Of a DNA stretch of 10,089 nt, positions 5,446 to 5,595 are shown one piece after another. Numbering within the stretch: position 1 is the first letter of the stretch; each line of letters starts with the position of its first letter. The notes below the pieces were generated by a model. The model made no database searches. It saw nothing but the letters and a program-made list of their open reading frames with translations, and was not told the origin of the DNA. Location of the stretch: IMG/VR virus record IMGVR_UViG_2675903357_000009; one strand, 5' to 3'. The DNA is from a virus (taxonomy: Duplodnaviria > Heunggongvirae > Uroviricota > Caudoviricetes). A program made the translations under genes and the position numbers.

Positions 5446-5595
5446 GGATCATTAAGCCTGTCTCTGATAGGCTCATTCTGCTTTTGCGCAAAGCAGTGGG
5501 CCTGAGGTTTGCTTGTGAACCCAACGCATGAGCAGATGGCTGGTGGGTGCCCCTAACACCCACCAGCCGCCCATTTACCACAAATAAAAAAGCCT

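Follow-up and report, generated by a model that had tools for sequence, protein, structure and literature searches.

Genomic Context of the Locus

The window, i.e., the whole 10,089-nt stretch of DNA analyzed here, is the Q/late region of a Stx-type lambdoid prophage with 94% identity to Stx2/Stx2a phages. The genes surrounding the repeat are arranged on the minus strand in the order DUF968, RusA, the antiterminator Q (6839→6018), a tR'-like terminator after Q (5937-5918), a 65-aa ORF (5793→5596), a second terminator, a leader region, a DNA methylase, tRNA-Met, and two copies of tRNA-Arg, and in the Stx2a phages that match the window at 94% the tRNAs are followed by stx2AB. Since the genes around the repeat are all on the minus strand, the relevant transcript is the minus-strand late transcript. 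The methylase (4387-5445, minus) is an N6_N4 DNA methyltransferase of 352 aa (Pfam PF01555, E = 7.9e-42), the homologs of which are annotated as adenine methylases, and no restriction gene is present beside it.

The 65-aa ORF had been labeled an HTH gene in the earlier note, a designation for which the sole database support is a sub-threshold Pfam match to TrmB (E = 0.0026; 18 bits, below the cut-off of 25.6). The protein belongs to phrog_331, a family of unknown function whose members include N15 gp51, phiKO2 Gp51, and a Hafnia phage protein annotated as MotA-like. In many cases, though not in all, this family accompanies the leader and the methylase: at 19 of ~54 species-level loci that have the hairpin described below together with the methylase, an HMM search detected no phrog_331 ORF within 900 nt upstream, which agreed with the count of loci lacking the small ORF obtained initially by tblastn. 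The stop codon of the 65-aa ORF (5598-5596) is located within an intrinsic-terminator-like stem-loop identified by the terminator scan (5586-5609, minus; GCCUUC-CGCAGU-GAAGGC + UUUUUU), in which the stem-loop spans 5609-5592 and is followed by TTTTTT at 5591-5586. The 5' limit of the leader falls at this site. Nearly all aligned homologs have a corresponding stem-loop of different sequence, likewise with a T-rich tail, just ahead of the leader, and the annotations of N15 and phiKO2 likewise place a terminator in front of it.

Elsewhere in the window, a second perfect 12-bp inverted repeat (TCCTTATGGACT / AGTCCATAAGGA, 10-nt loop) is found at 765-798, at the end of a 111-aa ORF (460-795), and is directly followed by a match to the STnc100 sRNA (821-1010, minus). 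A duplicated module occupies positions 1700-4350. It includes a truncated Q gene (2463-2062, 133 aa) that consists of the C-terminal Antiterm domain alone, while tRNA-Met/Arg at 1959-1707 and STnc100 at 1010-821 duplicate the tRNA array (4346-4097) and STnc100 (4020-3831) downstream of the methylase. The two module copies are separated by the orfB of an IS3-family transposase (2791-3609, plus), and the arrangement looks like an IS-associated rearrangement or the junction of two prophage late regions. In addition, a full-length sok antitoxin RNA is present at 9003-9178 on the minus strand (Rfam RF01794, 112 bits), which implies that the early-right region of the prophage contains a hok/sok-type toxin-antitoxin locus.

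The Inverted Repeat and Hairpin P1

The 150-bp gap (5446-5595) between the 65-aa ORF and the methylase, both on the minus strand, contains a perfect inverted repeat. A repeat search of the window located two arms of 12 nt each at 5538-5549 (GGCTGGTGGGTG) and 5557-5568 (CACCCACCAGCC), which are 100% complementary and separated by a 7-nt spacer, in exact agreement with the position and dimensions reported in the earlier note. When the window was shuffled 300 times with its dinucleotides preserved, a perfect 12-bp repeat with a loop of 3-10 nt arose in a single shuffle, and the element is thus non-random. The earlier argument that the repeat is not a terminator, having no adjacent U-tract, also proved correct, as sequence inspection and the terminator scan revealed no T/U run after the repeat on either strand. 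The presence of two Chi octamers within the arms had been overlooked: the left arm carries GCTGGTGG and the right arm its complement.

In the minus-strand RNA, the repeat corresponds to the apical helix (P1b, 12 bp) of a 47-nt hairpin (5574→5528), referred to as P1. At the base of P1, which spans 5528-5574 as a whole, AUGGGC (5574-5569) pairs with GCUCAU (5533-5528) to form the helix P1a. Above it lies an asymmetric 4-nt internal loop, AUCU (5537-5534), on the 3' side. In the sense RNA, the 5' arm of P1b is GGCUGGUGGGUG (5557-5568), which carries Chi GCTGGTGG at 5560-5567, and the 3' arm is CACCCACCAGCC (5538-5549), corresponding to GGCTGGTGGGTG on the plus strand. The two arms are closed by the apical loop UUAGGGG (5550-5556), which varies among homologs in sequence and in length (3-7 nt). 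The overall geometry is that of ~20 stacked bp, composed of 6 bp, the 4-nt loop on the 3' side, and 12-14 bp under the apical loop.

RNAfold recovered this architecture in 41 of 41 unique variants, and in each of these the fold of the sense RNA is more stable than that of the antisense, with means of -27.9 and -22.1 kcal/mol, respectively. Among 45 distinct hairpins, G.U wobbles account for 74 of the 567 predicted pairs (13%). In its consistently greater stability as sense RNA and its share of G.U pairs, P1 displays the strand specificity of a structured leader RNA.

Conservation and Covariation of the Hairpin

The two sides of P1 differ markedly in their conservation. The 22-nt 5' strand, AAAUGGGCGGCUGGUGGGUGUU in the sense orientation, is near-invariant across phages, whereas the 3' arm is found as CACCUGCCAGCC, CACUCACCAGCC, CACCCGGCCAGCC, CACCUUCCCAGCC, and others, so that the 45 distinct hairpins comprise 17 versions of the 5' arm, the canonical one in most cases, compared with 34 of the 3' arm. 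The drift of the 3' arm consists of C→U and A→G changes, which yield G.U wobbles, and of 1-nt bulges; among relatives with 94-100% identity, the perfect arm was observed at 36 loci and a C→U change giving a G.U pair at 27. The 5' arm stays frozen while the 3' arm drifts because the former is made almost entirely of G and U, where transitions break pairs, and the latter almost entirely of C and A, where transitions lead to wobble pairs. Judged from arm composition, such an asymmetry is what RNA-level selection would be expected to produce.

Rare changes in the 5' arm are compensated in the 3' arm. In Plesiomonas, a GG→AA change in the 5' arm is matched by CC→UU in the 3' arm, and position 7 of the arm has been seen as U:A, U:G, C:G, and A:U. 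In distant phages the arms differ in sequence yet still pair, as in Vibrio phage VHML (CUGCCCC/GGGGCAG) and in N15 (CGCGGGA/UCCCGCG), and the arms of phiKO2 (GCUG-CA-GCAUG/CAUGC-CA-CAGC) are again of different sequence and still complementary, as are those of PY54 and Hafnia phage yong2. Across 30 diverse leaders, both sides have changed in 19 of 34 pairs, compared with 6.8 ± 1.5 for shuffled and 7-9 for slid partners, and 10 of the 12 pairs in the P1b stem are compensatory. Compensatory pairing thus exceeds the controls in an alignment whose distant leaders were fitted to the model, with the hairpins also visible in raw sequences folded singly; P1 and a further helix, P3, were independently predicted by RNAalifold. 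Covariation is modest in the large set, where most close relatives are very similar, and it is a small number of distant phages that contribute the strong signal.

Taken together, these patterns indicate that selection acts on pairing in the minus-strand RNA, not on dyad symmetry of the DNA. Conservation of the palindrome had been proposed earlier as a check on its function, and the outcome is divided: the perfect DNA palindrome is not kept among homologs, while the minus-strand RNA helix is kept through compensatory changes.

Extent and Distribution of the Leader

P1 is the first element of a structured leader RNA of ~140 nt (5443-5582, minus), which is matched by the covariance model R1 with 133 bits. 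The leader runs from 5582 to 5443, beginning a few nt past the upstream terminator and finishing at the ATG of the methylase (5445-5443). Along the sense strand, the terminator (5609-5586) is followed by P1a, the internal loop, P1b, a linker, P3, GATC (5450-5447), and the ATG. In helix P3 (5470-5502, minus), GGCCCAC and (A)UGAGCC pair around the hairpin CUGCUUU-GCGC-AAAAGCAG, and the inner helix shows compensatory changes in 5 of 6 pairs. P3 is flanked by AAGGCCCA and GAGCCUAUCA, the most widely conserved single-stranded blocks of the leader.

A third, tentative helix, P0, is predicted to involve the GATC directly 5' of the methylase ATG (5447-5450, minus). Its predicted partner is GGUC/GAUC ~70 nt upstream, represented in the window by GUUC (5517-5520) with one mismatch. 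P0 is 98% paired and well kept in the lambdoid subfamily, with an AU→GC change at its closing pair in four sequences. P0 would sequester the start region, but it is not conserved in N15-type leaders, and therefore no single translation-control mechanism is supported family-wide. No canonical Shine-Dalgarno sequence at the usual spacing was found in leader-bearing methylase genes or in leaderless homologs, which makes the comparison of the two groups uninformative in this respect.

Of 5,426 complete E. coli genomes, 1,816 carry the leader, in as many as seven copies each, and it is spread across Enterobacterales; PGAP annotates nothing at its position in the E. coli genomes. Identity across the gap is ~83% in mEp460, cdtI, SfV, phiNP of Citrobacter, and Klebsiella phages, and 74% remains in phages of Morganella and Providencia; in these relatives, too, the gap is found downstream of Q, with a small ORF on one side and a homologous methylase on the other. 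Two collections were assembled from such loci, namely 89 unique leaders, gathered with a pattern from the downstream part so that the hairpin is unbiased, and 53 true species-level loci from Enterobacterales, gathered using the outer hairpin blocks alone. In most true loci, 90-94 nt separate the end of the hairpin from the methylase ATG, though methylase identity drops to 56-62%. Leader and methylase, the gene downstream of it, co-occur across loci, and this fixed position and co-inheritance are those of a structured leader.

More distant homologs were reached by tblastn of the methylase against phages. Directly before the methylase ATG, R1 scored 79 bits in Hafnia phage yong2, 54 bits in Vibrio phage VHML, and 38-52 bits in the telomere phages phiKO2, PY54, and N15. 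R1 detected no leader in Aeromonas phage phiO18P, where the methylase is situated between the holin and the endolysin; this leaderless homolog shows that the methylase can do without the leader. A methylase search of viral and metagenome collections returned just close relatives (81-100% identity), and a homologous-protein search with the methylase returned the same clade alone (at least 59% identity). For the methylase of N15 itself (gene 52, NC_001901.1), the annotated start is at 41621, while homology and the end of the leader model point to 41387, 234 nt upstream, so the annotated start is probably too far downstream.

No family of Rfam 15 reaches its gathering threshold over 5443-5582, the best overlapping match being Pseudomonas P26 on the opposite strand (24 bits against a threshold of 36 bits, E = 0.15). 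No published description of the leader was found in the literature searched. With neither an Rfam match nor a description in that literature, the leader constitutes a new family of a familiar kind of element, the structured 5' leader.

Other identities of the gap were considered and rejected. A protein-coding function was dismissed since neither the minus-strand ORF 5620-5438 nor the ORF from a conserved ATG is preserved, stops occurring at codons 3-43. A reading of the UGUGAAAAUGGG block as the extended -10 of a promoter is disfavored, as the would-be -7 T is replaced by G in N15 and VHML, in the latter together with a compensating change in the pairing partner; the promoter scan reported nothing at this block and no promoter-like site overlapping the repeat. 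The known EHEC prophage sRNAs AgvB, AsxR, Pas, and STnc100 map 3' of moron CDSs, not to the leader. Finally, a REP-like repeated or mobile palindrome does not fit, since all true genomic matches occur in the same methylase context, the rest being chance matches with unrelated inner sequence.

Chi Octamers in the Hairpin Arms

Exact copies of Chi, 5'-GCTGGTGG-3', are present in the repeat at 5560-5567 on the minus strand and at 5539-5546 on the plus strand. The window contains 11 Chi in 10 kb (1132-, 4740-, 4746+, 5539+, 5560-, 5875-, 7585+, 7637+, 8043-, 8101-, and 9246-, signs denoting strands), compared with 0.35 expected from shuffles (~30-fold) and ~2 at E. coli chromosomal density. Chi is the most frequent octamer of the window, and 7 of the 11 copies are on the late-sense strand. 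The sense-strand Chi of the leader is kept in 74 of the 89 unique leaders and at 47 of 52 loci with an intact methylase, which makes it the most stable Chi of its neighborhood; a nearby Chi in the methylase CDS is kept at 28 of the 52. An opposite-strand Chi can exist only where the octamer is perfectly complementary to the other arm; it is retained in 19 of 89 unique leaders and at 4 of ~53 species loci, and is a lineage-specific by-product of perfectly complementary arms.

The Chi site in the methylase CDS is an overlapping palindromic double Chi, CCACCAGCTGGTGG, at 4740-4753 (codons HQLV, ~residue 231), whose 28 of 52 homologous loci with the sense Chi compare with 16 of 52 for the double form, including mEp460 and SfV. 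Another late-sense Chi of the window (5875-5882, minus) is located ~35 nt downstream of the tR'-like terminator (5918-5937) that follows Q, in the region that gives rise to the short PR' transcript in Stx phages. In mEp460 and SfV, the leader Chi is preceded by a further late-sense Chi at a distance of ~310-320 nt.

Zheng et al. 2025 (PMC12315714) described that lambdoid phages without a Rec module gather top-strand Chi clustered at the right end, which act on RecBCD coming in from the right cos end. The type phage of this class, LLS, itself carries the leader, and homologous leader Chi are found on the late-sense strand in mEp460, SfV, and Stx2_95. Chi were counted directly in six genomes, and the four leader-bearing phages with Chi in P1 have 15-17 late-sense copies versus 3-5 on the other strand. 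The Chi richness of the window fits this Chi-rich class lacking a Rec module. The minus-strand Chi at 5560-5567 has the active orientation and the plus-strand copy at 5539-5546 does not; from what is known of RecBCD, the leader octamer should act as a Chi site, as one of the right-end Chi of the phage.

The exceptional conservation of the leader Chi is probably owed to the RNA helix. Arm variants that lose Chi are tolerated where pairing stays, and P1 is devoid of Chi in the Hafnia phage, which is rich in the octamer elsewhere, as well as in N15, which is poor in it (2 Chi in total). Arm conservation is fully explained by RNA constraints, and selection for Chi at P1 need not be invoked.

Alternative Explanations

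Apart from an RNA hairpin, the repeat could be thought of as a U-less backup of the terminator at 5609-5586 or as the terminator arm of a trpL-like leader peptide (MGGWWVL, with tandem Trp), considering that the stem is GC-rich and very stable and that a conserved ATG followed by TGG TGG begins exactly at the base of P1. This is barely credible, however, given that a U-tract is missing from both strands and that the scan reports the neighboring stem 5609-5592 with its TTTTTT as the intrinsic terminator. The peptide fares no better: the ORF from the conserved ATG ends at codon 3-43, stops replace the Trp codons in several homologs, no Shine-Dalgarno sequence precedes the ATG, and in VHML and N15 the first pair of the hairpin has changed from A-U to G-C or G.U, abolishing the ATG. 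Neither an alternative antiterminator pairing nor a downstream terminator was found, as a trpL-like attenuator would have. The suggestion in the earlier note of an RNA processing or attenuation structure is thereby narrowed, the RNA helix being upheld by compensatory changes and the attenuation finding no support. The same note had alternatively proposed an operator, here considered as a dyad DNA site for a dimer of the 65-aa winged-helix-like protein that would control the methylase as C proteins control R-M genes. A small ORF with a weak TrmB-like wHTH match does lie directly upstream, and phrog_331 accompanies the leader and methylase also in N15, phiKO2, and the Hafnia phage, the trio often being linked. 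Against this stand the unequal conservation of the half-sites (17 versus 34 arms), the bulges and variable loops that shift their spacing, and the G.U-type substitutions, which make sense solely in single-stranded minus-strand RNA. Moreover, the presumed regulator is missing upstream at about a third of the loci, the arms are wholly different in N15-type phages despite the same protein family, and no promoter-like site overlaps the repeat, all of which renders the operator very unlikely.

An explanation at the DNA level that takes the octamers themselves as the functional element deserves more attention. Here, two opposed Chi 13 bp apart would switch RecBCD arriving from either side, and the hairpin would be incidental. 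The exact Chi in both arms, the ~30-fold enrichment of Chi in the window over shuffles with Chi as its commonest octamer, the second palindromic example CCACCAGCTGGTGG in the methylase CDS, and the existence of Chi-rich lambdoid phages as a documented class (PMC12315714) all speak for it. Such a double site is nevertheless improbable, as its opposite-strand half is retained in so few leaders and species loci (19/89 and 4/~53) and the near-invariance extends beyond the octamer over the whole 22-nt 5' strand. In addition, changes that destroy Chi come with compensating changes in the other arm, and distant homologs retain the hairpin without any Chi.

Proposed Function of the Leader

The reading favored here, and regarded as likely, is that the repeat is the top of a conserved RNA hairpin opening a ~140-nt methylase leader on the late transcript, with one arm serving also as Chi. 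P1 would open the leader on the Q-antiterminated late transcript, a few nt past the intrinsic terminator of the 65-aa ORF, and the methylase would be the next cistron beyond a terminator that the late transcript reads through. As judged from sequence, the leader probably exerts post-transcriptional control of methylase expression. The geometry of P1 suggests that it may act as an RNase III-type processing or stability hairpin; alternatively, it could be part of a fold that governs initiation at the start codon, which is devoid of a Shine-Dalgarno sequence. Either of these sub-mechanisms, like any other single one, is tentative at best when taken on its own. Superimposed on the RNA function, the Chi in the sense arm would be read by RecBCD from the right cos end.

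A more far-reaching variant would see in the leader a new class of riboregulator, riboswitch-like or protein-responsive, that gates methylase translation with P1 as the switching helix. In such a switch, the invariant AUGGGC might alternate between two partners, its own 3' strand and, ~70 nt downstream, the invariant GCCCA within the AAGGCCCA block, and Chi might have been recruited into the frozen G/U arm, where a fast-evolving mosaic phage could not easily lose the octamer. This model is considered unlikely.

If the favored reading of a methylase leader opened by P1 is correct, an unannotated structured leader is present in about one third of complete E. coli genomes, in Stx-converting phages, in N15, and in Vibrio phage VHML. 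It would also help to explain how temperate phages control the timing or the extent of expression of an orphan methylase that could be harmful and is encoded between Q and the toxin/lysis genes. Furthermore, it would show how a DNA-level signal such as Chi can become frozen through selection on the G/U-rich arm of an RNA helix, which matters for how Chi conservation is read in Chi-rich, Rec-less lambdoid phages. As structured 5' leaders are familiar and the mechanism is a proposed one, the result is moderately, not highly, surprising.

Comparison with Known Systems

Hairpins that direct RNase III processing or determine transcript stability are known from phages, including the T7 R1.1-type sites, the lambda N-leader site, and sib. 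Like P1, these are long imperfect hairpins between the cistrons of a polycistronic transcript, with ~20 stacked bp that are interrupted, 12-14 bp below the apical loop, by an asymmetric internal loop in the 3' strand. P1 has no sequence similarity to them, and the likeness is geometric alone. The leaders and riboswitches curated in Rfam 15 share with the leader of the window a fixed spot before the start codon, several covarying helices, and conserved unpaired blocks; unlike these, the leader of the window matches no family.

The C-protein operators (C-boxes) of R-M systems are similar in that a small HTH-like gene lies upstream of the methylase with an inverted repeat in between. They differ from the present locus, where there is no conserved dyad, the spacing is variable, the regulator gene is missing at ~1/3 of the loci, and no restriction gene is found. 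The right-end Chi of LLS-class phages (PMC12315714; Bobay et al. 2013, PMC3784561) resemble the leader Chi in being exact octamers on the late-sense strand, no more than a few kb away from the Q/lysis/cos right end, in genomes with 13-17 sense-strand Chi compared with 3-5 on the opposite strand. In contrast to these, the leader Chi is embedded in a conserved non-coding RNA helix, not in coding sequence, and the perfect complementarity of the arms in the window adds an oppositely oriented copy. Its stability at 47 of 52 loci is probably due to the RNA structure, which freezes the octamer in place.
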